Origin: Treponemataceae bacterium
GTDB taxonomy: Bacteria > Spirochaetota > Spirochaetia > Treponematales > Rectinemataceae
Assembly (NCBI GenBank): GCA_963677895.2
Contig: CAXXGJ010000012.1
Location: 32,001-96,000, forward strand
Direction: 5' to 3'
Length of the DNA: 64,000 nucleotides
A program made the translations under genes and the position numbers. This document shows positions 21,014 to 37,426 of the stretch, in pieces (the stretch's first letter is position 1; each line of letters opens with the position of its first letter). Below the pieces are notes generated by a model. The model had not been told where the DNA came from. It worked only from the letters and a program-made list of their open reading frames with translations, and made no database searches.

Positions 21014-21853
21014 ATGGCAGAACAGAAACAGGGCAATCCTGAGATCGGAAAGACAATCCAGGCGGGCGGCATCGCCGTCAACTATCACGACATGGGCTCG
21101 GGCGATCCCGTCGTCTTCGTCCACGGTTCCGGACCCGGCGTTACCGCCTGGGCCAACTGGCGCCTCGTCCTTCCCAAGCTCGCGGCCACCCGCAGGGTCA
21201 TCGCCCTGGACATGATCGGCTTCGGCTACACCGAGCGACCCGCCGGCATACAGTTCAACATGGACGTATGGGGCAAGCAGCTCAAGGATTTTCTCGACGC
21301 CATGAAGCTGGACAAGGTGGACTTGGTGGGCAATTCCTTCGGGGGAGGCCTCGCTCTCTACATGGCCATCCACTATCCCGAGCGCATCCGCAAGGTCGTC
21401 CTCATGGGAGCCATGGGCGTCCAGTTCCCCATCACCGAATGGCTCGACAAGGTCTGGGGCTATGAGCCTTCCTACGAGGCCATGTCCGAGGCCCTCAATC
21501 ACTTCGTCTCGAACAAGGCCATCATCACGCCGGATCTGGTGAAGATGCGCTACGAAGCCTCGATCCGTCCCGGCTACCAGGAAAGTTTCGGCGCCATGTT
21601 CCCGGCGCCGCGCCAGCGCAGCGTGGACGCCATGGCCTGTGCCTCGGCCGACATAGCTTCCATCAAGCACGACACCCTCATCATCCACGGCCGCGAGGAC
21701 CAGGTCATTCCTGTCGAGACCTCCCAGCTGCTCTTCAGGCTTATCCCCAACGCCCAGCTCCACATGTTCGGCAACTGCGGCCACTGGACACAGATCGAGC
21801 AGAACGCGCGCTTCTGCGCAGTGGTCGAGTCCTTCCTCGCGGGAGTCTTCTGA
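21014..21853 (+). CDS. Meta-cleavage product hydrolase (XylF/DmpD/MhpC-like alpha/beta hydrolase)
   Basis: HGSGPGVTAWANW, nucleophile GNSFGG, CGHWTQIE. Confidence 0.93.
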   Translation: MAEQKQGNPEIGKTIQAGGIAVNYHDMGSGDPVVFVHGSGPGVTAWANWRLVLPKLAATRRVIALDMIGFGYTERPAGIQFNMDVWGKQLKDFLDAMKLDKVDLVGNSFGGGLALYMAIHYPERIRKVVLMGAMGVQFPITEWLDKVWGYEPSYEAMSEALNHFVSNKAIITPDLVKMRYEASIRPGYQESFGAMFPAPRQRSVDAMACASADIASIKHDTLIIHGREDQVIPVETSQLLFRLIPNAQLHMFGNCGHWTQIEQNARFCAVVESFLAGVF

Positions 21854-22641
21854 TGGCCCTCTCACCTGCTGAAATCGTCGCGGCCGCCGACGCCCTCGAC
21901 GCCGCCGCAAGAACCTGCGTTCCCATCGAGAAACTCACCGTTACCTACCCGGCCATCGACGTCGACGGCGCCTATGCCGTGCAGATGCGCAATGTCGAAC
22001 GCGCGCTGGCCGCGGGCAGAAAAATATCCGGCAAGAAGATCGGCCTCACCTCCAAGCCCATGCAGGACATGTTCGGTGTCACGACTCCCGACTTCGGCCA
22101 CCTCTTCTCCGATATGGAAGCGGCCGGCCGGCGCATCGAGCGCGCCACGATGGTCCAGCCCAAGGTGGAGGCGGAGATAGCCTTCGTCCTCGCCCGCGAC
22201 CTCGACATGGCCGGCGAAATCACCGCGGCGGACGTGCTCGCCGCGACCGACTATGTTGTCGCGGCCCTCGAAATCGTGGACAGCCGCATCGGCAACTGGA
22301 AAATCGGTTACTGCGACACTGTTTCCGACAACGCCTCCTCCGGCAGGTACGTGCTGGGATCAGTGCGGAAAAAGATCGCCGAAATCGACCTCAAGGCCGA
22401 AGTCATGAATTTTTCCCTGAACGGCGAGCCCAAAAACTCGGGCAAGGGCACCGACGTCCTCGGCGATCCCGCCTACTGCGTGGCCTGGCTGGCCAACTCC
22501 ATGCGGAAGTACGGCACCATGCTCAAGAAGGGCGAGGTCATCCTTTCGGGCGCGCTCTCCGCGGCCATCGGCGCCGGCAAGGGCGACAGCTTCAGGGCCG
22601 ATTACTCCACGCTCGGCTCCGTCGAAGTCGCTTTTTATTAA
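21853..22641 (+). CDS. mhpD: 2-keto-4-pentenoate hydratase (FAH superfamily)
   Basis: GKKIGLTS, PDFGHL, QPKVEAEIAF, ALEIVDSRI, DNASSG. Confidence 0.88.
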   Translation: MALSPAEIVAAADALDAAARTCVPIEKLTVTYPAIDVDGAYAVQMRNVERALAAGRKISGKKIGLTSKPMQDMFGVTTPDFGHLFSDMEAAGRRIERATMVQPKVEAEIAFVLARDLDMAGEITAADVLAATDYVVAALEIVDSRIGNWKIGYCDTVSDNASSGRYVLGSVRKKIAEIDLKAEVMNFSLNGEPKNSGKGTDVLGDPAYCVAWLANSMRKYGTMLKKGEVILSGALSAAIGAGKGDSFRADYSTLGSVEVAFY

Positions 22642-22654
22642 GAGGAACGGAATA

Positions 22655-23532
22655 ATGGCACAGAAGATCAAGGCGGCCATCATTGGCCCAGGCAATATCG
22701 GCACCGACCTCCTCATCAAGTTGAGGAGGAGCCCCTTCCTCGAGGTAGCCTACGTGGTGGGCGTCAAGGAATCCCCCGGCATAGAGATCGCCAAGGGTTT
22801 CGGCATCCCCACCACCATCAGGGGCATCGATGAGATTGCTCGAGGTCGAGGACATTAGGATAGTGTTCGACGCCACAGGCGCCGGACCGCACATGATCCA
22901 CGCCCCCGGGCTCAAGGCCGCCGGCAAGATCGCCATCGACCTGACGCCTGCCGCCGTCGGCCCCTATGTCGTGCCCTCGGTCAACTTCAACGAGGAAATC
23001 TTCAAGCTCGACAACGTCAACATGGTCACCTGCGCAGGGCAGGCCACCCTCGCCCATCGTCTACGCGGTCAACCGCGCCGCCGACGTCTACTACGCCGAG
23101 GTCGTCTCCTCGATCTCCTCCAGGAGCGCGGGGCCGGGCACGCGGCAGAACCTTAACGAATTCATCGAGACGACGACGAAGGCTCTGAGAACTGTCGGCG
23201 GCGCCGACCAGGCCAAGGCCATCATCGTCCTCAATCCCGCCGAGCCTCCCATATTGATGCGCAACACCATCCTCTGCAGGGTGCGCAGGCCCGATCTGGC
23301 GGTCATCCGCGAATCGATCGACAGGATTCTCGCCGACGTGAAAATCTACGTTCCCGGCTATCGCTTCCTCGTCGAACCGATTCTCCAGGGCGACACCGTC
23401 ACGACCGTCATCGAAGTGGAAGGCCTGGGCGACTTTCTGCCCAAACACACGGGCAACCTGGATATCATAAACGCCGCCGCCGTGGCGGTGGCGGAGAAAT
23501 TCGCCCGGCGCATTCAGGAAGGCAAACGATGA
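22655..23532 (+). pseudogene. mhpF: Acylating acetaldehyde dehydrogenase (MhpF/DmpF), frameshifted twice (real lesion or assembly error)
   Basis: Three consecutive frames give IIGPGNIGTDL / [28 protein letters not shown] / [25 protein letters not shown]; shifts near 22835 and 23048. Confidence 0.88.
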
Positions 23533-24556
23533 GCAAGGTCTACATAACCGACACGAGCCTGAGGGACGGCAGCCACTCCGTCTCGCATCAATACACGAGC
23601 GCCGATGTAGCCGCGGTCGCGGGGCGGCGCTCGACGATGCCGGCATCGACATCATCGAGGTGAACCATGGCGACGGCCTCGGCGGTTCCTCGCTGACCTA
23701 TGGCTATTCGCTGGAAAACGAGCTCGACCTCGTCTCAGCGGCGGCCAGGGTAGTCAAGAGAGCGCGCATCGCCGTCCTCCTCGTGCCCGGCATCGCCACC
23801 CTGGATCTCCTCGAGGAAGCCCAACGCCGAGGCGCCAGCGTCGTGCGCGTGGCCACCCACGTCACGGAGGCCGACGTTTCCGAGGAATACATCAAAGCGG
23901 CCAAGAAGATGGGCATGTTCGTCGTGGGCTTCCTCATGATGGCCCATATGGCCGACACGGCCAAGCTCGTGGAGCAGGCCCTCATCATGGAATCCTATGG
24001 CGCCGACGTGGTCTATGCCACCGATTCGGCCGGAGCCCTTCTGCCCGACCAGGTAGGCGAACGCGTCGCGGCCCTGAAAGCCGCACTCCAGATTCCCGTC
24101 GGCCACCATGCCCACGACAACCTGGGCTGCGCTGTCGCCAATTCGCTCGCTGCCGTGAAAGCGGGCGCCACCTATGTGGACGGCTCCCTCGGCGGAATGG
24201 GCGCCGGCGCTGGCAATTCAGCCACCGAGATGCTCGTAGGCGCCTTGAAGAAATCCGGCGCCGATGTCGCCGCCGACCTCTTCAGAACCATGGACGCGGC
24301 GGAGAAAGTCCTTCTTCCCATCGTGGCACAGAAGGGCAAACCCCTCCCGCGCCACGACTCCAACTCGCTCATCATGGGCTACGCTGGCGTCTATTCCAGC
24401 TTCATGCTCCACGCGAAGAAGGGCGCCGAGCGCTTCGGCGTCGACGTTCGCGACGTCCTTATCGAACTGGGGAAGCGCAAGGCTGTGGGCGGTCAGGAAG
24501 ACTGGATTATCCAGGTGGCCTACGACTTGGCCAAAGCTGCGGGAAAGCCCGTTTGA
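23529..24556 (+). pseudogene. mhpE: 4-hydroxy-2-oxovalerate aldolase (MhpE/DmpG), one frameshift near 23620
   Basis: ATG at 23529 reads [17 protein letters not shown]; continues in another frame as ALDDAGIDIIEVNHGDGLGGSS...HAHDNLG...GYAGVYSSF. Confidence 0.88.
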
Positions 24557-24597
24557 ATTGAGAGAGGCGGCGCGGGGGAACCCGTTTGTACGCGATT

Positions 24598-24629
24598 ATA
24601 TATGTGAACAATGTGCTACATAGCGGCAC
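24598..24629 (+). promoter_or_regulatory. Second copy of the operator-like motif, upstream of the third TRAP operon
   Basis: ATATATGTGAACAATGTGCTACATAGCGGCAC aligns without gaps to ATATATAAGAACGATGTGCTACAATGTAGCAC at 20918-20949. Confidence 0.65.
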
Positions 24630-24656
24630 TTGTAGGGTATTCAAGGAGGAATCATC

Positions 24657-25629
24657 ATGAAGAAAGGGATTATCGCTCTTCTCGTCCTGGCGATGCTGTT
24701 CGGCGCGACCGCCGGCGCTTTCGCCCAGAAGGAACTCAAGCTCGGCCACATCGCCGCGCCCAACACCGCCTACGACAACTGGGCCAAGGAATTCAAGGCG
24801 CAGGTCGAAGCCGGCACCAACAACAGGTATAAGATCGTCATCTATGGCGGCGGCCAGCTCGGCGACTCGGGCCCCCCTCATGGAAGCCATGCAGGCCGGG
24901 AACCTTCAGTTCGCCGTCATCACCTCGGGCGACGCCAGCCAGTTCATCAACGCCATCAACGTCCTCGACATGCCCTTCCTGTTCAGGAGCTGGGATCACG
25001 TTGAAAAGTTCATCGCCTCGAAGACGGCCAGGGACCTCCTCGACCTCTCCGATCAGTATGGTCTCAAGTCGCTCTCCTTGATGCCCCGCGGCTACCGCCA
25101 CGTGACGAACGCGAAATTCCCCATCAACAAGCCCGAAGATCTCAAGGGACTCAAGATGCGCATCAGCGAAAGCCCCGTCCTCGTCGAGGCCTTCAAGGCG
25201 ATGGGCGCCAACGCGCAGGCCATGGCTTGGTCAGAAGTGTACACCGCTCTCCAGCAGGGCACGGTCAACGCTCATGAGAACACCATCATCACCACCCGCG
25301 ACTACAAGATCAACGAAGTGCAGAAATACGTCTCCGAGACTGGACACGTCTTCGCCATGGCTACGCTCATGGCTTCGGGCGACTGGTTCAAGAAGCTTCC
25401 GAAGGCGGATCAGGACATAATCCAGAAAGCCGCCACGGACGCGGCCTACAAGCTCGGACTGGAGCAGGAAGCCAACGAGGCTAAGGCCAAGGCCGAACTC
25501 ATTTCCAAGGGCATGGTCTTCAACAGCCTCGATACCGAACCCTTCGTCAAGGCTGTCCAGCCCGTCATCAACAAGTACGCCAAGGGCGACGTCAAGAAAT
25601 TCTACGATGCCATCCTGGCGATAAAGTAA
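24657..25629 (+). pseudogene. TRAP substrate-binding protein DctP, frameshifted in a C-run near 24872-24877
   Basis: Signal peptide and YGGGQLGD in one frame; LMEAMQAG...DLKGLKMR...ALQQGTVNAHEN in the next. Confidence 0.88.
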
Positions 25630-25657
25630 TCCAGACCGACAAATATTTTTCTTGGGT

Positions 25658-25692
25658 GGCTGTCCTGGTTGCGACCAACTTCCAGGACAGCC
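25658..25692 (+). other. Intercistronic stem-loop after dctP
   Basis: GGCTGTCCTGG-N13-CCAGGACAGCC followed by TTT. Confidence 0.75.
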
Positions 25693-25725
25693 TTTACTCG
25701 CCTGCCTGACGCAAGGAGTATTTAT

Positions 25726-26223
25726 ATGAAAGCGTTGCTGAAAACCAGCGACATTCTTGACAAGATCTGCGGCTGGGTCATCGTAGCGCTGTTCATGTTG
25801 ATGACGATTACCTACGCCACGCAGATTTTATTGAGATATGTTTTCGGAACCGGCCTGATGTGGACGGAAGAACTAACCCGCTACGCCGATATATGGGCCG
25901 TGATGATCGGCGCGGCGATGATCGCCAAGCGCAGGAGCCATATCAACGTGAGCGTGCTTGAGGAATACCTGCCCAAAGCGTCCAGGGCTTGGCTCCTCGT
26001 CTTCCAGCAGCTTCTCTCCCTCGTATTTTTCGTCGCGATGTTCTTCATCGCCTTTAAATTCATAAAGCTCGCCGGCACCCAGGTGAGCACCAACATGCGC
26101 ATACCCAAGCGCTGGGTATATTGGATATTCCCGCCCGCCTTCGGAGTGTTCATATTCCAGACCCTTGTCGGAACCCTCAAGGGAGCGCAAGAAGCGAAGA
26201 CCGCCCAGGAGGCCAAATCATGA
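25726..26223 (+). CDS. TRAP small permease (DctQ)
   Basis: Start MKALLK after AAGGAG; QILLRYVFG...WTEELTRY. Confidence 0.9.
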   Translation: MKALLKTSDILDKICGWVIVALFMLMTITYATQILLRYVFGTGLMWTEELTRYADIWAVMIGAAMIAKRRSHINVSVLEEYLPKASRAWLLVFQQLLSLVFFVAMFFIAFKFIKLAGTQVSTNMRIPKRWVYWIFPPAFGVFIFQTLVGTLKGAQEAKTAQEAKS

Positions 26224-27484
26224 CCCTGCTGCTTTTCGGATCCGTCCTTGTCCTCCTGGCGGTAGGCGCTCCCATCGTCACGGCGATGGGCGGCTCAGCC
26301 CTTCTCACCATATTCGCGTCGGGCATCAATCCCACCACGGCTGTCCAGCGCTTTTTCGCGAGCATCGATTCGGCGGCCCTCTTGGCCATCCCCTTCTTCA
26401 TCCTCGCCGGCGACCTCATGAACAAGGGCGGACTCGCGAAGCGCCTCATCGGTTTCGCGGGCCTCTTCGTGTCGAAGATTACGGGCGGCATGGGCATGAC
26501 GGCCATCCTCGCCTGCATGCTCTTCGCCGCCATCTCTGGCTCGGGCATAGCCACCGCCGCGGCTATCGGCGGTGTCATGATCTCGGGCTTCAAGGACCAC
26601 GGCTATAAGCCAGCCTACGCGGCGGCCATCGTGGGATCGGCGAGCCCTATCGGCATAATCATCCCGCCGAGCATCGCTTTCATCATCTATGGAACGCTGT
26701 CCAAGGCATCGGTAGGCCAGCTCTACAAAGTCGGCTTCCCCGCAGGAATCATGGTAGGCGTCGCCTTGATGGTCGTCACCTTCTTCACCGCGAAAAAGCA
26801 TAAGATTCCCCGCGAGTCCAAGGGCCTCGGCAGCAAATCCGTCAAGGAAGTGGTGATCGACACAGCTTGTCGCCCTCGGCACGCCCGTGATCATCAGTGG
26901 GCGGCGTCTTTCTCGGCGTCTTCACCCCCACCGAATCGGCGGTCGCGGCTGTCATTTATTCCATTATTATCGGCGTTTTCGTGTTCAAGGAAATAAAGCT
27001 CAAGGAGCTGCCCGGCATATTCCTCCAGTCGGCCATCAGCTCGGCGGGCATCATGATCATCATCGCGGCCGCTTCCCTCTTCGCCTGGACCATGGTCTAC
27101 ATGCAGATTCCCCAGAAAGCCTTCGAGGCCGTGCTTTCCGTCGGCATGAGCAAATACACCCTCCTTTTCGTCGTCAATATCATTGTCCTGATAGCGGGCA
27201 TGTTCATGGAGTCGGGCTCGATACAGATCATCCTCGTGCCCCTCCTGCTGCCTATCCTCGAAGTGCTGCAGATCGACCTCGTGCACTTCGGCATCATTCT
27301 GACGACCAACCTCGCGATCGGCATGCTCACCCCTCCCTTCGGACTGACTCTCTTTACCGCGTCGCGCGTGCTGAAGGCTGATTTAAAGGATACTATCAAG
27401 GAAGCTTGGCCCTTCCTGGGCGCGATGGTCATAGTCCTGATGATCATCACCTATGTGCCGGCCTCGGTGATGTGGATTTTGTGA
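26220..27484 (+). pseudogene. TRAP large permease DctM with two frameshifts at ~26860-26900
   Basis: LLAIPFFILAG, AISGSGIA, IIPPSI in one frame; LVALGTPVII in a second; GGVFLGVFTPTES...TPPFG in a third. Confidence 0.88.
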
Positions 27485-27506: not shown

Positions 27507-28313
27507 TCATCGCTTGAGGCGCTTTTCCAGCGTCCTGACGAGGAGGGATAGGCTGAGCGTGAGGCAGAGGTAGAAGAAGGCGACGGCGTTGTAAGTCTCG
27601 AAAAACTTGAAGGTGGAGGCCGCGTAGACCTTGCCAAGCTGGGTGATATCCTGGACGCCGAGGGCGGAAACGAGCGATGAATCCTTGATGATGGCGACGA
27701 ATTCGTTGCCGAGGGCGGGCAGGACATTCCTGATAGCCTGGGGCAGAACGATGCGCCACATCACCTGAAGGTGCGACATCCCGAGGGCTTCGGCGGCTTC
27801 GACCTGGCCTTTGTCCACGCTCTCTATGCCCGCGCGGAAGATTTCAGCGATGAAAGCCGAGTAGCCGAGGGTGAGGGCCAGGACGGCGCGCGTGGCGAAA
27901 TCGAAGCTGCGCGCCTCGACACGGCCGATGAGCCCCGACGCGATGAGCGGTGTCAGGATGACGTTGAGCGCTTGAGCGAGAGCGGGAGCGCCGACGAAGG
28001 CTATGTAGTACAGTATGACGAGCATGGGAAGGCCGCGCACCAGCTCGATGTAGAAGGTCGCCACTTCGCGAGCGGTGCGGAGCCGCGACGAACGCAGGAG
28101 CCCCAGCCCGAGGCCGAATAGTATCGACGCGGCATACGCGATGAGCGATACCATCAGCGTGACGCCGAGACCGCGCGACACGGCGCCGAATATGACGCGA
28201 TAATCGGCCGCGGCCATGGCGGACGCGAGGAGCCAGCCCCCGAGGCCTACGATGGCGACGAGCCACCAGGGGATGCGATCCAGTGCCGTCTGCTTAATTC
28301 GGGGTCTGCGCAT
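27507..28313 (-). CDS. Polar amino-acid ABC transporter permease (HisM/GlnP family)
   Basis: YIELVRGLPMLV, AEIFRAGIESVDKGQVEAAEALG (EAA loop), LPQAIRNVLPALGNEF..KDSSL. Confidence 0.93.
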   Translation of the reverse strand: MRRPRIKQTALDRIPWWLVAIVGLGGWLLASAMAAADYRVIFGAVSRGLGVTLMVSLIAYAASILFGLGLGLLRSSRLRTAREVATFYIELVRGLPMLVILYYIAFVGAPALAQALNVILTPLIASGLIGRVEARSFDFATRAVLALTLGYSAFIAEIFRAGIESVDKGQVEAAEALGMSHLQVMWRIVLPQAIRNVLPALGNEFVAIIKDSSLVSALGVQDITQLGKVYAASTFKFFETYNAVAFFYLCLTLSLSLLVRTLEKRLKR

Positions 28314-30173
28314 AAGATGGTCCTTTTACCTGCATTGGTCCCTCGCAGGGCAATTCGATGAAAAAGACGGTATTGCCCGGTTCGCTTTCGCACCATATCC
28401 TGCCGCCATGAACTTCCGTTATATGTTTGCAGATCGACAGGCCAAGGCCGGCATGTCCGTTTCCGCTTTTTTCGCTCAGGAAGGGCGTGAAAAGACTGGC
28501 GATCTTGGCAGGCGGGATGCCGGGGCCGCTGTCCCGTACCTGCAGGAGGGCGCTATTGTCGGCCTGCTTCCGAAGTCGGACTACGATGGAACCACAGCGT
28601 CCCGCTACATCGAGCGCATTCATGAGGAGATTGATCAGAACTTGTTTGATTCTGGCGGGATCTATACGCAGCATCACCGGTTCGCTGGGTATATCGGCTT
28701 CCAGGCTGATGCCGAGACGTTCCGCTTCGTATTCAAGCAGGACAAGCGAATCCTTGATGACCGCGTTGATGTCATGCGGGCTCAATGCCGACGAATCGAC
28801 GCTCGAAAAGGACAGGAGATTAAGCATGCTTCCATGAATTCGCTTTATCTCATTTCGGATGATTTCGAGCCTTTCACGCGCATACTCGTCGTTCGTCTTC
28901 ATGAGCAGGAGTTCCACATAGTTGGAGATGATGCCGAGAGGATTGTTCACTTCGTGAACTATGCCCGTCGCCAACTGGGCGATGGACGAAGTTCGGTCTA
29001 GGCTTGCTAGATAGTCCCGTGTCGCCCGTTCTTCCGTTACGTCCTGAAGTACGAGGATGGTTCCAAATAGCTGTTTTAGACTGTCGTGGAAGGGTAGGTC
29101 ATCACATTGACGAATCTGCCGTTCGCCGTCGGCCACTGTTTCCATTTCGCCGGCACTCCCGATCTTATGGAATCCATGATCAGCGCCAGTCGTTTATCGC
29201 CGAAACCATTCCGCAGCGCCAAGGCGGTCAGGGGAATAGCCGCCGCAGGTTCTCCCGCCTGTGACGCGGGAATCAGCGTTTTTGGGTCCGTGCAGATAAT
29301 GTCGCAGGCCGATTGATTCGAGAGGTATATTTCGCCTTCCCCGTCGAAAAAGACCGTTCCCAAGGGGAGATTGGAGACAATTTCCTCATTGTACTTTTTG
29401 TATTTCAGCAGGCGGATATTCTTGCTGAACAGTTCTTCCCTCGACTCGTTGAAAGAATAGGCGAGATCGACAATGTCCTCTCGGTCAAGGCTTCTGGCCG
29501 GTTGGGTTTCGACGATTCTTCCCGCTTTTATAATCGATATGATATCAGCGATCCTCAGCACCTCGTCGACGTTGGAAGCCGCATAAAGAACTGCCTCATT
29601 ACCGCTCCGTCTTTCCGCTAAAACGGAATAGAGCACCTGCATTTCGTCGGCGGTAAAGCGACCCGAAGGCTCATCCAGAATAAGAATTCTCGGATTAAAG
29701 GCCAAAGCTCGCCCTAGCTCGATGACGGTGGATTCTATTCTCGCCAGCCGATGCATGGGTAGACGCAGATCCGGATGAAGGCTCCACTTTTCGCAGAGCG
29801 CGAGAATGAAGGCCTCTATTTCATCGCGCATATTGCCCGACGAAAAACCGATGGACATCCTCCCGGCCATGATGTTTTCCCAGGGCAGAAGAGTCGGAAT
29901 GATGTTCTGCGTTTGATGGAAAACGCCAATACCAGCCTGGGCCATAATCTTTGGATTGCGTTTCACCAGGGGGATGCCATCGATGAGAATCTTGCCTCTA
30001 TTGAGGATCATCTTTCCTTCGAGGAGGGAGACGATGCACGATTTACCCGCCCTGCGTTCCCCGATGATGGCGTGCACTTCACCGCTCGCCGCCATCAGGC
30101 TGAACTCGTCGAGCGCTATCGTCTCCCTGTAGGAAGCCGTGACGCCACGGAGCTCAAGTCCTTGCATCGTCAT
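28294..30173 (-). CDS. Hybrid sensor kinase: ABC-ATPase-like domain + PAS + HisKA + HATPase, split by a 1-nt frameshift near 29090
   Basis: ORF 29076-30173: GEVHAIIGERRAGKS, ILILDEP, then PAS start IVSNLPLGTVFFD...N; ORF ending 28294: PAS end GTILVLQDVTE, HEVNNPL, QVLINLLMNA, DSGPGI, LFTPF, GLGL. Confidence 0.85.
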
Positions 30174-31533
30174 CCATGCCAAGCTTTTCGAGCTTGTTGT
30201 AGAGGGTTCGTCGCGGTATTCCCAACAGCCGAGCGGCCTCCGTCCTGTTTCCCTTTGCCTTGTCGAGCGCTTCAAGAATCATGTTACGCTCCAATACCTG
30301 CCGTGCCTCACTCATCGAATTCCGGGATGCATCCGATTCCTTTGATTCATCGAGGCAGGAAGCGACTACGTTTCTGCCTATTCCCATCTTGTACTGTTGC
30401 GGAAGATGCCTGGGGCCAAGGTGGCGGCCGTCACAGAAGATGATGGCGCGCTCGATGCAGTTTTTCAGTTCACGGACATTTCCGGGCCAGGGCTGCGCCT
30501 CGAGGATGGCTAGGAACTCATCGTCGATGAGGGGTTCTTCCTTCCCGTAGGAACGCGAGAAATCGGCGACGAAACGTTTCGCGAGAACGGGAATGTCCTC
30601 GATATGCTCGCGAAGAGGGGGAGTCTGGATGCAGATCACCGAGAGCCGGTAATAAAGGTCTTCCCTGAACATGCCTTTTTCGATGAGCGTGTGCAGGTTC
30701 TGGTTGGTCGCCGATATGATCCGGGTATTGGCATTAAGGTCCTTGGTGCCGCCCAACCTGCGGAATTCCCCTCCCTGAAGTATATGAAGGAGTTTCGACT
30801 GGAGACGGATGTCCATATCCCCGATTTCATCGAGGAAGACGCTGCCCTGACTGGCGCTTTCGAAAAGCCCCGCTTTTCGTGCAAGAGCGCCCGTGAAGGC
30901 TCCTTTTTCGTAGCCGAACAGCTCGCTTTCGAGAAGTGTGTCGGGTATCGCGGCGCAGTTGATTTTCATGAAAGGATGGGCGGAGCGCAGGGACTGGTTA
31001 TGTATAGCTTCGGCTACCAGTTCCTTTCCCGTGCCGCTTTCGCCCGTGATGATGACGGAGGCTTCCGTGGGGGCGATGCGCTCGATCGATTCCCGCAGTT
31101 CGCGAATGACCAGGCTTTCTCCGTAGAGGGCGCCGACAGCATGATTGGGAGTTTCCGGCAGCTGATTGGCGCCTGCCAGTTTGCATTGATTCAGCTGGTC
31201 ACGCAGCTTCCTGAAATCCAGCGGCTTGGTGAAAAAGTCCATGGCGCCGTATTTCATGGCCAGCACCGCGGTTTCCACGGACGGGTAACCTGTCATCATG
31301 AAAATCCTGAGGTTGGGCGATATGTCGCGGAGCTCCTGGATGAGATCTAGGCCGCCGCGACCCGGCATGCGCACGTCCACGATGGCTATGTCGGGATGGC
31401 CACCGCTAGTCTGTTCGAGCGCGGAGACGGCGCCGTCCGCCAACATCGTCTGGTAGCCTTCGCTCTGCAGGAGTTCGCCGAGCGAAGCCCTCATGGGCTG
31501 CTCGTCGTCGACGATAAGTACCTTCGTTTTCAT
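30154..31533 (-). CDS. NtrC/AtoC-family sigma54-dependent response regulator
   Basis: Receiver (VDDE, IVDVRMP, KP); AAA+ GESGTGKE, GAFTGA, FLDEIG; C-terminal Fis-type HTH. Confidence 0.97.
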   Translation of the reverse strand: MKTKVLIVDDEQPMRASLGELLQSEGYQTMLADGAVSALEQTSGGHPDIAIVDVRMPGRGGLDLIQELRDISPNLRIFMMTGYPSVETAVLAMKYGAMDFFTKPLDFRKLRDQLNQCKLAGANQLPETPNHAVGALYGESLVIRELRESIERIAPTEASVIITGESGTGKELVAEAIHNQSLRSAHPFMKINCAAIPDTLLESELFGYEKGAFTGALARKAGLFESASQGSVFLDEIGDMDIRLQSKLLHILQGGEFRRLGGTKDLNANTRIISATNQNLHTLIEKGMFREDLYYRLSVICIQTPPLREHIEDIPVLAKRFVADFSRSYGKEEPLIDDEFLAILEAQPWPGNVRELKNCIERAIIFCDGRHLGPRHLPQQYKMGIGRNVVASCLDESKESDASRNSMSEARQVLERNMILEALDKAKGNRTEAARLLGIPRRTLYNKLEKLGMDDDART

Positions 31534-31584: not shown

Positions 31585-32595
31585 TCAGCGGGGCTTCTTC
31601 TTGGAGTAGGAGTCGATGCCCACGACTACCAGGATGATCAGGCCTTTTATGACATACTGGATGAAGACCGGCACGCCGAGGAGATTGAACGCGTTGGTGA
31701 CGACGGTAAGGAGAAGGACACCTATCATGGCGCCGAGAACCGTGCCTTCGCCGCCGGAAACCGAGGTGCCGCCGATGACCACCGCCGCGATGGCGTCCAT
31801 GTCATAATTCTGCCCCGCGAGAGGCGTGGCCGACGAAAGTCGGGATGCGTAGACGACGCCTGAGATGCCCGCCATAAGGCCGCCGATGAGGAAAGTCATG
31901 ACGTGGTAGAAGTCCACGGAGACTCCGGCAAGCCGCGTCGCTTCTTTGTTGCCGCCGACGGCGCAGCAGTAGCGGCCGAGCTGGGTCTTGGAGAGAATGA
32001 ATTGAAAAATGACGACAAGCGCGATCATTATGATGACGGGTACGGGAATGCCCCATAGATAACCGGAGCCGATTACCTCGAATGCTGGCTGCTGGCCGTT
32101 AATAGGGTAGCCGCCGGTATAGAGATAGACGAGGCCGCGTACGATGGTTGAGGTGCCCAACGTCGCTATCATAGGAACAATGTGAATCTTCGCGGCGAGA
32201 ATACCATTGAAGAGACCTATCAGCGCGCCGGCGAGGATAGCGATCATGGCGGCCAAGGCCCAGTGCATCGAGCCTTGCAGCCCGAGCGCCAACGCCGCCG
32301 ACAAAGCAAGCACCGATCCGACGGAGATATCGAATCCTCCACCGATGATGACGAAGGTAGTGCCTATGGCCATGATACCGACGATCGTGCTCTGCCTGAG
32401 GATGTTGAGCAGGTTCCTGGAGGAGAGAAAGTTGGGTGTAAGCAGGGAAATCCCCAGCGAGAGCACGAAGAAGCTGATGAGCAGGCCGTAGCGTTTTAAG
32501 ATTTCTTTGTAGTACTGCCTCTTTTTTTTAGTAGCCTCCATACCGCCCGCTTGGATGGAAGTCGCCGCTTTAGCATCGATATCGTTACCGCTCAT
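31585..32595 (-). CDS. Monosaccharide ABC transporter permease (RbsC family)
   Basis: GMT-like GTTFVIIGGGFDISVGS, AVGGNKEATRLAG, DAIAAVVIGGTS. Confidence 0.95.
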   Translation of the reverse strand: MSGNDIDAKAATSIQAGGMEATKKKRQYYKEILKRYGLLISFFVLSLGISLLTPNFLSSRNLLNILRQSTIVGIMAIGTTFVIIGGGFDISVGSVLALSAALALGLQGSMHWALAAMIAILAGALIGLFNGILAAKIHIVPMIATLGTSTIVRGLVYLYTGGYPINGQQPAFEVIGSGYLWGIPVPVIIMIALVVIFQFILSKTQLGRYCCAVGGNKEATRLAGVSVDFYHVMTFLIGGLMAGISGVVYASRLSSATPLAGQNYDMDAIAAVVIGGTSVSGGEGTVLGAMIGVLLLTVVTNAFNLLGVPVFIQYVIKGLIILVVVGIDSYSKKKPR

Positions 32596-34129
32596 TGTTC
32601 ACCTCGATCATATCTTTTAGTAGTATATCTTCCGATGGTGGAATCGCATAAGAACGCTTGATCTTCCCTTTTTGCATGACCAACACTCTGTCGGAGACCA
32701 CAAGGAGTTCGGCGGGATCGCCGGAAAGATAGATAATGGATTTCCCTTTCGACGCAAGATCGCGCACCGTCGCGTAGATCTGTTCCTTCGTGGCGACATC
32801 GATGCCGCGCGTGGGCTCATCCAGAATAAGAACCTTCGGGGAGGCTAGCAGCCATCGAGCCAAGACACATTTCTGCTGATTGCCGCCGCTCAGGAATTTT
32901 ACCCGCTGATCCAGGCTGGCGAACTTGATTGAAAGTTGGGCGGCCACGGCTGTCGTGCGGTTTTTTTCTTTTTTTGCGTTGATGCATCCGTACTTGACGA
33001 TGCTGGGCAGGGACGAAAGGGAAATATTGCTTTGAATGTCCTGTTCGAGGATCAGCCCCTGCGTTTTGCGGTCTTCCGGCGCCATGCCGATCCCATGGTT
33101 GACCCCATCGTAAGGGGAACGAAGCTGTATCGGTCTGTTCTCCAGGGTTATGGAACCGCTGTGGCTGACCGACGCGCCGGAGAGCGTTCGCGCCAGTTCC
33201 GTCTTGCCCGAACCCACGACGCCGGCGATTCCGAGCACTTCGCCCGCGCGAAGTTCGAATGAAATATCCGAAAATTCGGCGCGTCGACCGAGGTTCTTTA
33301 CCACCAGTTCTTCTTTTTCGCCATGAGCCCTTACGAAGGGCTTTCGTTCCGCCACTTCCTTGCCGAGCATTAGGGTGACTATTTCCTTGATCGGCAGAAG
33401 GGGCGAGATGCGCTCGGCGACTATTTTCCCGTCGCGGATCACCGTCGCGCTGTCGGCGATGCTTTTCACTTCATCCAGGAAATGCGTTATGAAAACGATG
33501 CTCATGCCCTCGCGCCTAAGGTCGCCGACAGTCTTGAAAAGGAGCGCGGTTTCCTGCGAGCTGAGCGCGTCGGTGGGCTCATCCATTATGATGATGCTGC
33601 AGTTGCGCGATACCGCCTTCATTATTTCGGCCATCTTTTTCTGCGCGGGGCTGAGATCGCGGACCTTCGTCGCGGAGGGAATGTCCAGGTCGAATCGCTC
33701 GCAGAGCTTTTCGTACTCCGCCTGCATGAGTTTGTCGTTCAATATTCCCGAACCCTTTGTGGATTCGCGGCCGAGAAATAGGTTTTCGATGATGGTAAGG
33801 CTGGGGATGAGGCTCGATTCTTGGTGCACGACGCTGATTCCCGCCCTGTAGGCATGGATGGGTTTGCTGAATTGGACCGGTTTGTCATGAAGGAATATCT
33901 GGCCGCTGTCCGCGTGATAGACACCGGAAAGAATCTTCATGAGCGTCGATTTTCCCGCCCCGTTGGCGCCGAGAAAAGCGACGACTTCGCCTTTTCGGAG
34001 ATTGAAATCGACGTTATCCAGTACCTGGACGCCCAGAAAGCTTTTTGAAATGTTCTTCATGGCGAGAATGACGGGAGGGGCAGCCGCATTTCCGCCCTCT
34101 GACCTTCGCGAATTTTCTTGAATATTCAT
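32585..34129 (-). CDS. Monosaccharide ABC transporter ATP-binding protein with two NBDs (RbsA/MglA family)
   Basis: GANGAGKST, IIMDEPT, FITH, LSGGNQQK, ILDEPTRGID. Confidence 0.96.
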   Translation of the reverse strand: MNIQENSRRSEGGNAAAPPVILAMKNISKSFLGVQVLDNVDFNLRKGEVVAFLGANGAGKSTLMKILSGVYHADSGQIFLHDKPVQFSKPIHAYRAGISVVHQESSLIPSLTIIENLFLGRESTKGSGILNDKLMQAEYEKLCERFDLDIPSATKVRDLSPAQKKMAEIMKAVSRNCSIIIMDEPTDALSSQETALLFKTVGDLRREGMSIVFITHFLDEVKSIADSATVIRDGKIVAERISPLLPIKEIVTLMLGKEVAERKPFVRAHGEKEELVVKNLGRRAEFSDISFELRAGEVLGIAGVVGSGKTELARTLSGASVSHSGSITLENRPIQLRSPYDGVNHGIGMAPEDRKTQGLILEQDIQSNISLSSLPSIVKYGCINAKKEKNRTTAVAAQLSIKFASLDQRVKFLSGGNQQKCVLARWLLASPKVLILDEPTRGIDVATKEQIYATVRDLASKGKSIIYLSGDPAELLVVSDRVLVMQKGKIKRSYAIPPSEDILLKDMIEVNNER

Positions 34130-35373
34130 TTAGAGTCCTCGTGATGCGGTGACATCGTATCCATCGAGGCTATAGCCTCGATATGCCGCTTGGGCACGTA
34201 CAGTATATTCCAGCATACGGCAATGTTTTGGCCCGAGAGGCTTTTAAGGTACGAATCGCGTACGCCATCGTCGATCTGAGTATCGTAGGCTTCGTGCTGG
34301 ACTAGCTCGATGCCCGCGTAGATTTCTGGTTTGGGGGCCGCGGCGGGATCGATTTCCCGCTTACAGCGGAGCAGTTCCGACGCGGCGATCGAAGCCGGGA
34401 AATTTCCTTTTCGGCGCACCACCTCCAGGTATTCACGGCCCATTCCGGAGAGCTTGGAGACGAAGTCCACGGCTTTTGCCGCGTCGATACCCGATTCTTC
34501 AAGCCCCTTCATCAAAAGGAAAAATTCCAGTGGCATCCCTGCCGGAGCCCAAGCTTTACAGTAGAGCATCGGCTTCATGAAATCCGCGTGGCGCGACAGC
34601 GAACGATAATCCTGGCCGACGAAACCGGCCAGCGCGGGCGCGAAGAGATCCAGGCCGACGCTGAGGCCTTCCGCGTGAGCGGCATCGGCATAACGCGTCA
34701 CCGCGTTATTGACCATCCATGAGCGGAACTGAAATGCTTTTCTGGCATTCTCGATGAAGTCTTGGGCGCTACCGACGCTCTGAGCCGCGTGCCGGACGAA
34801 GAGCGAAGCAAGGTCGGACCATGCTTCGCCGCTCCAGGCGCGATAGGCTTCCTTGCATAGGGGACAGGAACAAGCGCTCATGAATTCGAGGCCGTTGGCG
34901 GGGGAGGGGTACCGTATCCGGTCGAGGAAGATGCCCCGCGCGCCGATGGATTTCGCCGCCCGAAGCGCGGAATCTATGCCCTTTTCGTCCTTTCCCAGGG
35001 CGCTGGGACAATAGAAGAGGAACTTTTCGTCGCCTTTCCCGATATTCTCCCAGGCGCCGGTGGCGCCGTATCCCGTCCTACCTTGAGCGTCCTGGACATT
35101 GGGAAAAGAAGACAGGGCGGCGGGGCGGTCGGCGAAAACCATCACCCATAAAGAGACCCTTGTACCCACTCTGTCACAACGCTCCGTGATCTTCCGAGCC
35201 AGATAGCTCGATGACTTGGTTATGGATAGAATCAGTTCCCGGGGAGCGAGGGCATCGAGCACATAGTTTAGACATGCCAGTATGCCGGCTTCGCCGAAAT
35301 GGGCCAGCTGTTCGGGGCCGACCATCAGCTGCGCTGCGATTTTGCCGCCGTTTCTTGTCAATTTAGGTTCCAT
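34126..35373 (-). CDS. Uncharacterised protein, probably a glycoside-hydrolase-like TIM barrel
   Basis: Start MEPKLT; GIFLDRIRYP followed by CSCPLC, then VGQDY...DFMKPMLY; lies inside a sugar ABC operon. Confidence 0.6.
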   Translation of the reverse strand: MEPKLTRNGGKIAAQLMVGPEQLAHFGEAGILACLNYVLDALAPRELILSITKSSSYLARKITERCDRVGTRVSLWVMVFADRPAALSSFPNVQDAQGRTGYGATGAWENIGKGDEKFLFYCPSALGKDEKGIDSALRAAKSIGARGIFLDRIRYPSPANGLEFMSACSCPLCKEAYRAWSGEAWSDLASLFVRHAAQSVGSAQDFIENARKAFQFRSWMVNNAVTRYADAAHAEGLSVGLDLFAPALAGFVGQDYRSLSRHADFMKPMLYCKAWAPAGMPLEFFLLMKGLEESGIDAAKAVDFVSKLSGMGREYLEVVRRKGNFPASIAASELLRCKREIDPAAAPKPEIYAGIELVQHEAYDTQIDDGVRDSYLKSLSGQNIAVCWNILYVPKRHIEAIASMDTMSPHHEDSK

Positions 35374-35387
35374 TGTTTTCTCTTGAG

Positions 35388-35421
35388 CGGCGGGAAATCC
35401 ACCGAAGAGGACTCCCCGCCG
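35388..35421 (-). other. Intercistronic stem-loop with cUUCGg tetraloop after the sugar-binding protein gene
   Basis: Minus-strand RNA CGGCGGGGAGUCC-UCUUCGGU-GGAUUUCCCGCCG pairs fully only on the coding strand (G-U pairs). Confidence 0.75.
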
Positions 35422-35438
35422 GTTGTTGGAGGATGGGA

Positions 35439-36371
35439 TCACATCTCGGGAACGTGTTTGCTCACATTGTTCTTGTCGACGATGACGGGAATGACTTCGA
35501 TGTAGGAATCGATCTTCTTTCCGGAAAGATATTCGGCGGTTTTCTGGACGGCCAGATAACCCATGTCTATGATGGAAGCATAGGCCGTCATATTGACGCT
35601 TCCGGCCTTGATCTCGGCCTGGAGCGCCTTAGAATACTCGAGGGCGGTGATGTATTTCCCCTTGAGTCCGGCTTCCCTGATGGCTTTGGCCGCGGCAACC
35701 GCGCCGTCCGTCCATTCGGCGGAGACGAGGTCGAAATCCTGTCCTTTCTGGAGAAAGGCTTCCATAGCCGCGAGCGATCCTTCCTTGGTCCAGCCGGGAA
35801 TCGCCTGGCTGTAGATGATCTTGTACTTGCTGTTCGCGAGTTCGGCCCTGAAACCGTCGTTTCTCATGCGCTGGGCGCTGGTTCCCGGCTCTCCTTCGAT
35901 GAGGACGATGTTCGCGGCTCTGTCGCCCAGAAGCTGTTTGGCCATCTTGCCCATCATGGTGCCATAGGAGAGGTCGTTGATGCCGATGAAGGTGACGACG
36001 CCGGGATACTGCCCGTTCTTGTCGGAGCCGAGCGTGTTGGTGAACGTAATGAGGGGGATCTTGGCTTCGTTGCACATTTTTACCGCCGGAAGCAGGGCGA
36101 GAGGATCGCGGGAGCAGAGCATGATGGCGTCTACGCCCTTGGCCACGAAGTTCTCCACCTGGTTAAGTTGTTTTCCCGCGTCCCATTCGGCGTCGGAATA
36201 GGTGAGCTGAAGATTGAACTCGGCGGCTGCCTTGTCCATGCCTTTGCGTTCCACGGCGAAGAACTCGACGGATCCGGGAAGACAGACGGCGACCTGCTTC
36301 TTCTTGGCTTGGGCGGAAACACCGGTTATCAGCACCAACGCGCACAGAAGAACGCCAACGATTCGTTTCAT
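35439..36371 (-). CDS. Sugar ABC transporter substrate-binding protein (RbsB family)
   Basis: Signal peptide; DAEWDAGKQLNQVENFVAKGVDAI; GEPGTSAQRMRNDGF; RBS AAGGAGG. Confidence 0.95.
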   Translation of the reverse strand: MKRIVGVLLCALVLITGVSAQAKKKQVAVCLPGSVEFFAVERKGMDKAAAEFNLQLTYSDAEWDAGKQLNQVENFVAKGVDAIMLCSRDPLALLPAVKMCNEAKIPLITFTNTLGSDKNGQYPGVVTFIGINDLSYGTMMGKMAKQLLGDRAANIVLIEGEPGTSAQRMRNDGFRAELANSKYKIIYSQAIPGWTKEGSLAAMEAFLQKGQDFDLVSAEWTDGAVAAAKAIREAGLKGKYITALEYSKALQAEIKAGSVNMTAYASIIDMGYLAVQKTAEYLSGKKIDSYIEVIPVIVDKNNVSKHVPEM

Positions 36372-36413: not shown

Positions 36414-36431
36414 TAGCATATCCCATGCCAA
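36414..36431 (-). promoter_or_regulatory. Sigma54 (-24/-12) promoter
   Basis: Minus strand TTGGCATGGGATATGCTA has exact GG-N10-GC spacing, ~45 nt upstream of the first gene of an operon that encodes a sigma54 activator. Confidence 0.8.
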
Positions 36432-36551: not shown

Positions 36552-36601
36552 TGTTCATTATTTAGCACAGAAAACGTCCTGTCTGTGCCATTACTGGCAC
36601 A
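36552..36601. promoter_or_regulatory. Two tandem enhancer-like (UAS) sites, TGT-N12-ACA
   Basis: TGTTCATTATTTAGCACA (36552-36569) and TGTGCCATTACTGGCACA (36584-36601), 32 bp apart. Confidence 0.6.
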
Positions 36602-36628: not shown

Positions 36629-37426
36629 TTAAGGCTTGTACTCGAAGAACCACTTGGTGTTCAGCCTGTCGAGGAAGCCTTCGGTTTTGAGGGCGGCGAT
36701 GGCCGCGTTGAAAGGGCCGACCAGGTCGGAACCTTTCTTGAAGATGAAGCCGAACTCTTCGGTGCCGAGGGCGCCGCCGACCGATTTCAGCTTGTTGGGA
36801 TAGGCGCCGATGTAGCCTTTGCTGGAGGCGGCGTCCATGAGCACCATATCGATGTCCCCGGCGATCAGGGCTTGGACCGTGGCGCCGAAGGTTTCGAAAA
36901 GCTTGATGCGGGGATTGGCTTCGTCGCCGTCGAGGACGTTGTAGACGGCCACATAGAAGTTCGTGGTGCCCGCCTGGGCTCCGATGAGGAGCTTGGGATT
37001 GGCCGCGAAAGCCTTTTCATCCTGGAAGCGGTTTTCGCTGGCGCGCACGAGCATGAACTGCTGGCTCACCATGTAGGGGCTGGAGAAGTCGACCTGGCCC
37101 TTTCTTTCGTCCGTTATGGTGATGCCGTCCATGCCCACGTCGAACTGTCCGTCGCGCACGGCCTGGATCATGGTGTCCCAGGAGGTGATCTTCCATTCGA
37201 TCTTGGCGTTGAGACGCTTGCCGATCTCGTTCACCGCGTCGTATTCCCATCCCATGGCTTTGCCGGTTTTGGCGTCGACGAAATTGAGGGGCAGATAGGC
37301 GTTTTCGGTCACGGCGATGATTTTTCTTCCCTTGAGGTCGGGAAGCTTGGCGGTTTGGGCGCCGGCGGCTAAGACCGTTGCGAAGACCATGGCGAATACC
37401 ATAAGCATGAATGTCATCTTTCGCAC
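36629..37426 (-). CDS. Polar amino-acid ABC transporter substrate-binding protein (family 3)
   Basis: Signal peptide; ENAYLPLNF, GITITDERKGQVDFSSPY, GAQAGTT. Confidence 0.95.
   Translation of the reverse strand: MRKMTFMLMVFAMVFATVLAAGAQTAKLPDLKGRKIIAVTENAYLPLNFVDAKTGKAMGWEYDAVNEIGKRLNAKIEWKITSWDTMIQAVRDGQFDVGMDGITITDERKGQVDFSSPYMVSQQFMLVRASENRFQDEKAFAANPKLLIGAQAGTTNFYVAVYNVLDGDEANPRIKLFETFGATVQALIAGDIDMVLMDAASSKGYIGAYPNKLKSVGGALGTEEFGFIFKKGSDLVGPFNAAIAALKTEGFLDRLNTKWFFEYKP

Follow-up and report, generated by a model that had tools for sequence, protein, structure and literature searches.

On the minus strand of a 64,000-nt stretch of DNA from a Treponemataceae bacterium (contig CAXXGJ010000012.1, positions 32,001 to 96,000; hereafter the window), two open reading frames (ORFs), 29076-30173 (365 aa from the ATG at 30173) and 28294-29145, lie beside the genes of a CUT2 sugar importer and together encode a histidine kinase whose input domain is the nucleotide-binding domain (NBD) of an ATP-binding cassette (ABC) transporter. 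An earlier note on this DNA had read the two ORFs as one protein of 626 aa, interrupted by the loss of a base, with the order NBD-PAS-HisKA-HATPase. The features of the gene are as follows, NBD1 being the first NBD of a tandem ATPase.

28294..30173, minus strand: NBD-PAS-HisKA-HATPase kinase gene with a one-base deletion, 626 aa if intact (ORFs, protein alignment, Pfam)
29448..30173, minus strand: ABC nucleotide-binding domain, nearest to NBD1 of the tandem CUT2 ATPases AraG, YtfR, XylG and RbsA (Pfam ABC_tran, NCBIfam, tree, model)
30039..30062, minus strand: Walker A, GERRAGKS (GENGAGKS in RbsA NBD1)
29718..29747, minus strand: signature region, LARIESTVIE; all RbsA NBD1 domains examined are degenerate here too
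29667..29687, minus strand: Walker B, ILILDEP, then a remodelled D-loop with a basic residue
29574..29576, minus strand: H-switch position, occupied by Ser; 86 of 145 family representatives have His
29373..29441, minus strand: long helix linking NBD and PAS, with a family-conserved D-x3-L-x4-Y junction before it (conservation, AlphaFold)
29041..29372, minus strand: PAS-fold domain, with the frameshift inside (AlphaFold, Foldseek, PAS_9 of the paralogue)
28813..29037, minus strand: signalling helix and HisKA, phospho-His at 28954-28956 (Pfam, AlphaFold)
28345..28662, minus strand: HATPase_c catalytic domain with N, G1, F and G2 boxes (Pfam)
29092..29094, plus strand: site of the one-base deletion, a 3-base run that has 4 bases in intact relatives (comparison with a 93%-identical locus)

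Judged by alignment, the fusion of NBD and kinase in one polypeptide is real. A protein search with the first ORF returned as its best match an intact protein of 624 aa (P0003, 96% identical), of which the two window ORFs form the halves and which carries ABC_tran, HisKA and HATPase_c in a single chain; the start at ATG 30173 gives two residues more than P0003 has, and thus the 626 aa first proposed. Pfam assigned ABC_tran to the first ORF (residues 21-170, E 2e-15) and HisKA, above its cut-off, together with HATPase_c to the second. The PAS domain, which had also been expected from Pfam, had no Pfam match in P0003; it is assigned on the predicted fold of residues 266-376 (AlphaFold), structural matches with LOV/PAS kinases (Foldseek), PAS_9 in a paralogue and PAS in many relatives, and the proposed domain order stands. 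The AlphaFold model, built on a 147-sequence alignment (mean predicted local distance difference test, pLDDT, 90.7; predicted template modelling score, pTM, 0.57), places the NBD at residues 1-240, a helix at 243-265, the PAS fold at 266-376, the signalling helix and HisKA at 378-452 and the catalytic domain up to residue 608. Foldseek matched PAS/LOV kinases and ABC NBDs separately, and among the matches listed no solved chain held both. As first noticed, the kinase has no membrane segment (highest 19-residue hydropathy 1.28 versus 2.84 for the neighbouring permease), and hydropathy exceeds 2.0 in 2/145 family members. The motifs GERRAGKS, GVFHQ, LARIE, ILILDEP, YAASNVDE and HEVNNPL read as reported earlier; across the family representatives the H-box His is present in 145/145 and the N, G1, F and G2 boxes are 96-99% conserved. 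A 261-aa plus-strand ORF at 28216-29001 has no NCBIfam match, and was rejected as a gene and taken as a shadow frame.

The kinase belongs to a conserved, apparently uncharacterised family with an ABC NBD as its input domain. The search with the first ORF listed 120 proteins, 35 of them with ABC_tran, HisKA and HATPase_c in one chain of 592-626 aa. The earlier note had held that homologues with NBD and kinase in separate proteins would undo its proposal; a profile search of 1.84 billion cluster representatives found the full NBD and kinase together in 145 of the best 150 clusters at 50% identity, a lower bound, since further matches lie beyond the best 150. Searching with a distant family member gave 684 proteins at E <=1e-60, and 119 of the best 120 have all three Pfam domains. 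By their source names the members come from Spirochaetota and KSB3 (Vecturithrix, Moduliflexus), a taxonomy that is based on those names and on the ESM Atlas, in which a matching Spirochaetota cluster is present. Within the phylum, strict-threshold matches occur in at least 14 of 401 genomes, including two single-contig genomes (G030, G094). The genome of the window itself holds an intact paralogous kinase on another contig (G000:C6:93700-95490), with the H-switch His present, and as many as three paralogues can occur in one genome, each of them next to a separate importer (G120). One family member of 851 aa has two HisKA stretches (P0128). When longer proteins were searched for this NBD fused to other outputs, none turned up beyond one 645-aa family member, which is weak evidence; the search otherwise gave permease or binding-protein fusions and a tandem CUT2 ATPase of 692 aa with an IclR_C effector-binding domain at its C-terminus (P0388), another transporter-regulator fusion. 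Our literature search, which left subscription papers mostly aside and did not extend to supplementary domain tables, found no study of the NBD-PAS-kinase architecture.

The NBD appears from sequence to derive from an RbsA-type NBD1, as had been proposed. Its best NCBIfam matches are of the AraG, YtfR, XylG and RbsA type over residues 4-237 (E 1e-36 to 5e-27), all with scores far under the family cut-offs, and the fusion point is where the NBD1-NBD2 linker starts in tandem ATPases. Those ATPases have two NBDs per chain, whereas the kinase has one NBD followed by PAS and kinase core. Metagenome loci were gathered by a DNA-pattern scan for Walker A with Arg at position 4, which under-samples the largest clade; the best 80 of 99 matches were analysed, 28 of the 80 having no full-length kinase, most of them cut at contig ends (11 of the 28 were inspected and proved mostly ordinary or broken ATPases or off-target). 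A kinase-pattern scan of genome contigs gave fusions at 4/80 loci, the other 76 being excluded from all counts. In a tree of 144 NBDs, made by a quick method with midpoint rooting and without outside ABC families, all 82 kinase NBDs fall into a single group (100% support), separate from NBD1, NBD2 and the single-domain ATPases of the neighbouring importers. Among the NBDs sampled, the kinase NBDs are thus placed in one clade, with the window's own clade on a long stem.

To define what this NBD has kept and changed, the 82 kinase NBDs were compared with 28 neighbouring RbsA NBD1 domains, and a wider set of 145 diverse representatives was read alongside. The Walker A Gly and Gly-Lys-Ser, the Q-loop Gln and the Walker B Asp-Glu are 95-100% kept in the 82, and the 145 retain the Walker A Lys in 140, the Q-loop Gln in 112, the Walker B Asp in 140 and the Glu in 129. 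The changes that extend across the family are at Walker A position 3 and in the D-loop. Position 3 is Asn in 28/28 RbsA NBD1 domains but in 0/82 kinases, which have His or Arg there, and in 5/145 of the wider set; the GxNGAGKS of tandem ATPases accordingly does not match the GERRAGKS of the window. In the D-loop, Pro is mostly lost and Lys or Arg gained. A change from Gly to Arg at Walker A position 4 was dropped as a family mark: it occurs in some kinase clades only, Gly being commonest (91/145), and Arg is not unique to kinases because four ordinary ATPase genes (L136, L144, L190, L145) read GENRAGK. We take all three sites to lie on the NBD-NBD face, as in ABC anatomy generally. On this reading of the alignments, the NBD-NBD face is remodelled while the nucleotide-binding residues are retained.

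The earlier note had taken the degenerate signature as a sign of a pseudo-NBD, and this does not hold. No kinase NBD, whether of the 82 or of the 145, has LSGGQ, but the same is true of the neighbouring RbsA first NBDs (0/28), where degeneracy is normal, with LSGGNQQ in 28/28 second NBDs. One degenerate site has been reported in RbsA and NupO (PMC11466899). The missing H-switch His was read correctly in the window protein, which has Ser, but its loss is clade-specific: the window's clade is without it, and the His is kept in 55% of the 82, in 86/145 and in the genome's paralogue. The degeneracy argument is therefore weaker than stated, as the signature is degenerate in all RbsA NBD1 domains and the His is often kept. 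New and conserved are the residues of the NBD-helix junction, Asp228 (125/145), Leu232 and Tyr237 (128/145). The kinase NBD probably binds Mg-nucleotide and would be a poor ATPase as a homodimer, because two NBD1-type domains supply no LSGGQ signature.

The importer operon of the window includes the regulator and kinase genes; its other features are listed here.

30154..31533, minus strand: NtrC/AtoC-type sigma54 response regulator (REC, AAA+ with GAFTGA, HTH_8), overlapping the kinase start (Pfam, NCBIfam)
31585..32595, minus strand: CUT2 permease, BPD_transp_2, RbsC-like (Pfam)
32585..34129, minus strand: tandem-NBD ATPase, RbsA-like (Pfam, motif comparison)
34126..35442, minus strand: uncharacterised 438-aa protein, possibly a TIM-barrel glycoside hydrolase on weak evidence (DUF4015, E 0.006, below cut-off)
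35439..36371, minus strand: periplasmic sugar-binding protein, Peripla_BP_4, RbsB-like (Pfam, NCBIfam)
36416..36430, minus strand: predicted sigma54 -24/-12 promoter, 59 nt before the binding-protein gene (motif scan; kept in L130 and L126)
36552..36601, no strand assigned: two tandem palindromic sites, 36584-36601 and 36552-36569, candidate enhancer for the regulator (sequence pattern)

By gene order, the kinase's partner is the adjacent NtrC-type regulator. Such a regulator lies directly upstream of the kinase in 63 of 65 loci with at least 500 nt upstream, and in 45/46 after dereplication at 90%. Of 22 well-flanked loci, 21 have both a CUT2 permease and an ATPase no more than 8 kb away; a script scored a binding protein at 17 of them, and the gene listing adds one for each of the remaining four. 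For the one locus that lacks them, the genome, G143, has on another contig a 74%-identical orthologue of the permease that accompanies its sister kinase. A sigma54 motif precedes 26/36 first importer genes, against 0.45 expected from shuffles, and is found before 1/73 internal genes and 0/38 regulator genes; it is also present in 6/6 further kinase loci, one of which (L227) is near-identical to L130. Because these motifs precede the first importer genes, the importer operon is very likely the predicted target of the regulator. The palindromic sites lie 120-170 nt above the window's sigma54 motif and are retained in a locus of about 70% identity, although a count of the pattern is circular, having been derived from the two window sites themselves. 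A scan for sigma70 promoters and terminators gave no excess over shuffles. Two RpoN-box proteins are encoded in the window genome (contigs C2 and C18 of G000); given its contamination of 5.5%, one of them may be foreign.

The binding protein is nearest to RbsB yet far below the cut-off, and the substrate could not be named from it. Recurring neighbours of the kinase loci are sugar enzymes (FGGY kinase, short-chain and zinc dehydrogenases, class II aldolase). The 34126-35442 protein, which has a conserved Cys cluster and no confident family, gave a low-confidence model (pLDDT 48) with GH35-type matches at a template modelling score of about 0.25. At five loci (L102, L116, L127, L143, L191) the importer has a single-domain ATPase of about 260-280 aa with an intact LSGGQ-type signature, which argues that a locus can do without RbsA NBD2 as such. 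The genome's paralogue lies in a nucleoside hydrolase/ribokinase operon (L001, 5667-16769 on G000:C6), where the kinase is followed by a further binding protein and permease that lack their own ATPase; L187 has a similar extra pair.

How might an ABC NBD instruct a kinase? We consider it reasonably probable that the NBD docks on the cognate importer and relays its state. In this model, a soluble two-component kinase would use its copy of the CUT2 ATPase NBD1 as input domain and bind the importer at the inner face of the membrane. Docking of binding protein loaded with substrate, or cycling of the importer, would shift the NBD, the linker helix and PAS would carry that movement to the kinase core, and the core would phosphorylate the NtrC-type regulator, which would activate the importer operon. 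The loop would be positive in the window, since the operon there includes the regulator and kinase genes. Two modes of docking can be envisaged, the one carrying about half of the weight that we give to docking and the other about a third. In the former, which taken by itself is a tentative proposal, a kinase dimer would take the ATPase's place on the permease dimer. One and the same pair of binding protein and permease would then form a pump when joined by RbsA and a transmembrane receptor when joined by the kinase, and docking of the loaded binding protein would shift two non-hydrolysing NBDs and so switch the kinase. If true, an ABC importer would become a receptor by exchange of its motor subunit, a new kind of system. 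In the latter, the kinase NBD would pair with the second NBD of the ATPase, whose signature is intact.

Three indirect lines of evidence, taken together, favour physical coupling, which the earlier note had proposed and which stands as a lead, docking and signal being predicted and the mode not fixed. Neighbourhood is one: every paralogue goes with a different importer, but the kinases lack any external sensor, and the resulting need for importer specificity counts for docking. Another is co-divergence, computed over 20 loci (after dropping L001 and one L146 kinase) with kinase core and regulator as controls. The NBD co-diverges with the permease (partial r=0.28, p 0.013), RbsA NBD1 (r=0.37) and RbsA NBD2 (r=0.46; p 0.0005 for each of these two); the link with NBD2 persists in a further control (0.30, p 0.0015), and neither PAS nor kinase core co-diverges with the importer. 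The third is complex prediction, for which the modelling with the permease suggested earlier gave a weak result: the permease dimer with NBD residues 1-262 scored 0.60 against 0.00 for the best of 3 controls, with runs agreeing in at least 94% of contacts and partner pLDDT of at least 76. In addition, eleven positions that we assign, by presumed correspondence to MalK structures rather than by mapping on a structure here, to the permease-binding groove are 73-100% kept in the 82 kinase NBDs versus 61-100% in RbsA NBD1. A search of PDB sequences returned no permease of this CUT2 family.

Several points weigh against docking. The link between NBD and permease is lost once the ATPase is controlled for (r=-0.08), it was smaller in an earlier set with mis-assigned partners (0.18, p 0.06), and the correlation of NBD and ATPase may reflect shared rates of homologous domains; the 20 loci are related rather than independent, so that Mantel-type tests overstate. 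The mark used for complex scores was reached by 116/157 solved complexes and 2/215 mismatched pairs, but 18/157 solved complexes and both mismatches passed with scores of 0.60 or less, and 0.60 is thus in a band where passes are more often wrong than right; any CUT2-type NBD might, moreover, score by family likeness. The putative groove is less kept in the 145 representatives (Pro91 59, Gly102 46, Gln85 112), and the sampling of metagenome loci by a Walker A with Arg under-represents the largest clade. Nearly all importers beside a kinase have their own ATPase, so a dedicated sensor permease is neither needed nor usual. Finally, linkage and sigma54 promoters point to regulation of the importer rather than to contact with it, and both binding and signalling by the kinase are predictions.

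The kinase might never contact the importer. The NBD could be a stand-alone cytoplasmic sensor, reading the ATP/ADP ratio or an imported sugar phosphate at its remodelled P-loop, a reading that fits the retention of the Walker A Lys and Walker B Asp (each 140/145), the new conserved His and basic residues near P-loop and D-loop, which could make an anion site, and the sugar kinases (ribokinase, FGGY, Dak1) in several loci. ATP sensing alone would, however, give no specificity to paralogues at different importers, co-divergence with importer proteins is seen for the NBD but not for the other parts of the kinase chain, and the putative permease groove is retained in the 82-sequence set; we regard this reading as unlikely. 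A little less likely still is a PAS domain that does the sensing itself, with the imported sugar or a catabolite as ligand, and an NBD whose role is confined to dimerising the kinase or tethering it near the importer. PAS domains are established small-molecule sensors, and PAS is the most variable domain here (mean distance 2.06 versus 1.39 for the NBD), which counts for this explanation because a ligand-specific domain is expected to vary. Yet PAS shows no partial co-divergence with the substrate-setting binding protein (r=0.04, p 0.32), its conserved residues are those of a generic scaffold only, and the strong conservation of Asp228 and Tyr237 fits a signal that passes through the NBD-helix junction.

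Far less probable is a kinase NBD that works as a transport ATPase, the kinase dimer powering a second, ATPase-less pair of binding protein and permease and signalling while it pumps. The pairs at the paralogous locus and at L187 would suit it, as would the many members that keep Lys, Gln, Asp-Glu and His, but no family member listed has an LSGGQ signature, the extra pair is rare and accompanied both times by a normal ATPase in the same locus, and the window's clade is without the H-switch His. We give least credence to the NBD being the passenger of an old deletion that fused the start of an ATPase gene to a kinase gene, or to the fusion being an assembly artefact. The frameshift in the window copy and the decayed Walker A motifs of some distant members might suggest as much; conservation has already largely refuted it, with the whole NBD in frame in 145/150 best clusters, the fusion present in the two single-contig genomes, the kinase NBDs in one fully supported clade and no further copy with an internal split, against 75 full-length loci.

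The frameshift itself is an absence of one base from a four-base run at 29092-29094, relative to an intact locus of 93% DNA identity. A 1185-nt contig of run X3, otherwise identical to the window, has the extra base, whereas a 1494-nt contig of run X1 (depth 2.9, possibly the source sample) has the same break; no contig of run X2 bridges the site. A sequencing error and a real allele are therefore about equally probable to us. In the two genomes of the same genus the gene is intact and lies in the same operon, and the four other partial copies beside the 75 full-length loci stop at contig edges. As the gene stands broken, the system would work in this organism only if the break is a sequencing error, and the window copy is on that account a poor experimental subject, for which the paralogue is a better choice. 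Nearby, indels of 1-2 bases at 22834, 23047, 23621, 24872, 26864 and 26896 split genes for an acetaldehyde-dehydrogenase-like protein, an aldolase-like protein, a TRAP binding protein and DctM. Contigs of the near-identical X2 and X3 runs have none of them, and those of X1 lack most; the assembly is thus error-prone at 22830-26900, and these indels are probably assembly errors.

The plus strand at 21853-26223 has FAA-hydrolase, acetaldehyde-dehydrogenase-like (a label that we presume) and DmpG-like aldolase genes, followed by a TRAP transporter, and this group resembles a lower meta-cleavage pathway cluster. The sugar-importer/kinase module is flanked on the minus strand by a family-3 binding-protein gene and a BPD_transp_1 permease gene (27507-28313, 36629-37426) that look like one amino-acid ABC operon, with the same layout in L130. 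The module has lower guanine-plus-cytosine content in parts (0.54-0.58 versus about 0.59-0.62) and is possibly an old insertion.

To conclude, we compare this family with systems already described. Its NBD shares the fold and the degenerate signature of NBD1 of the tandem CUT2 ATPases (AraG, YtfR, XylG, AlsA, RbsA, MglA), which have a second NBD where the kinase has helix, PAS and kinase core, and from which it differs in Walker A position 3 and the D-loop. PAS and kinase core align to AtoS over residues 252-609 (E 2e-57) and the regulator is AtoC/NtrC-like, but at 195 bits the protein is well under the 646-bit AtoS cut-off (NCBIfam PRK11360), and the input region of AtoS/NtrB-type kinases is replaced by the NBD. 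Actinomycetota have ABC_tran-GAF-HisKA-HATPase proteins that likewise fuse an ABC_tran domain to a kinase (two ESM Atlas clusters, with 166 and 64 members); they have GAF instead of PAS, are longer (about 830-850 aa) and come from another phylum, and with a similarity score of 0.85 that serves as a lead only, they are possibly an independent fusion. Our literature search found no paper on them.

Transporter-coupled kinases are already known, as separate chains or with a fused membrane domain. BceS is membrane-anchored and BceR is an OmpR-type regulator. BceAB and BceS/BceR are described as an ABC transporter and kinase that form a sensory complex controlling the transporter's own genes (PMC4513084, PMC6978683). 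Contact is shown there for a separate kinase without an NBD that serves a resistance pump, whereas here a soluble kinase with its own NBD would contact a sugar importer and act through a sigma54 activator; with no membrane segment and a CUT2 importer instead of a BceAB-type pump, it is not a Bce module proper. PhoR has a PAS domain. The ABC importer of PstSCAB-PhoU-PhoR informs the kinase from the cytoplasmic side via its ATPase subunit (PMC6978683). That system needs the adaptor PhoU and has no NBD in PhoR, while the kinase here carries its own and no PhoU-like gene is among the recurring neighbours of its loci. As in Bce and Pst systems, the kinase and regulator genes are linked to those of the transporter that they would control. 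CbrA and CrbS are transporter-domain kinases. In Ks-Amt5, as reported, a piece of a transporter that no longer transports was recruited as a histidine-kinase input module (PMC5764959). There, as in CbrA/CrbS, the recruited domain lies in the membrane and binds the solute itself, whereas the domain recruited here is a soluble motor domain, which must therefore act through a partner or a nucleotide. The family predicts, for each paralogue, which uptake operon that paralogue controls, and the intact copies in the two single-contig genomes make it testable; with such a kinase the conformation of an ABC transporter could be read out directly, and CUT2 importers would gain a handle for study. Provided that the coupling is real, these kinases would work like the Bce and Pst modules though belonging to neither. 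A soluble kinase with its own copy of the importer motor would then be a third wiring of transport to gene control, one that hundreds of spirochaete and KSB3 proteins employ.

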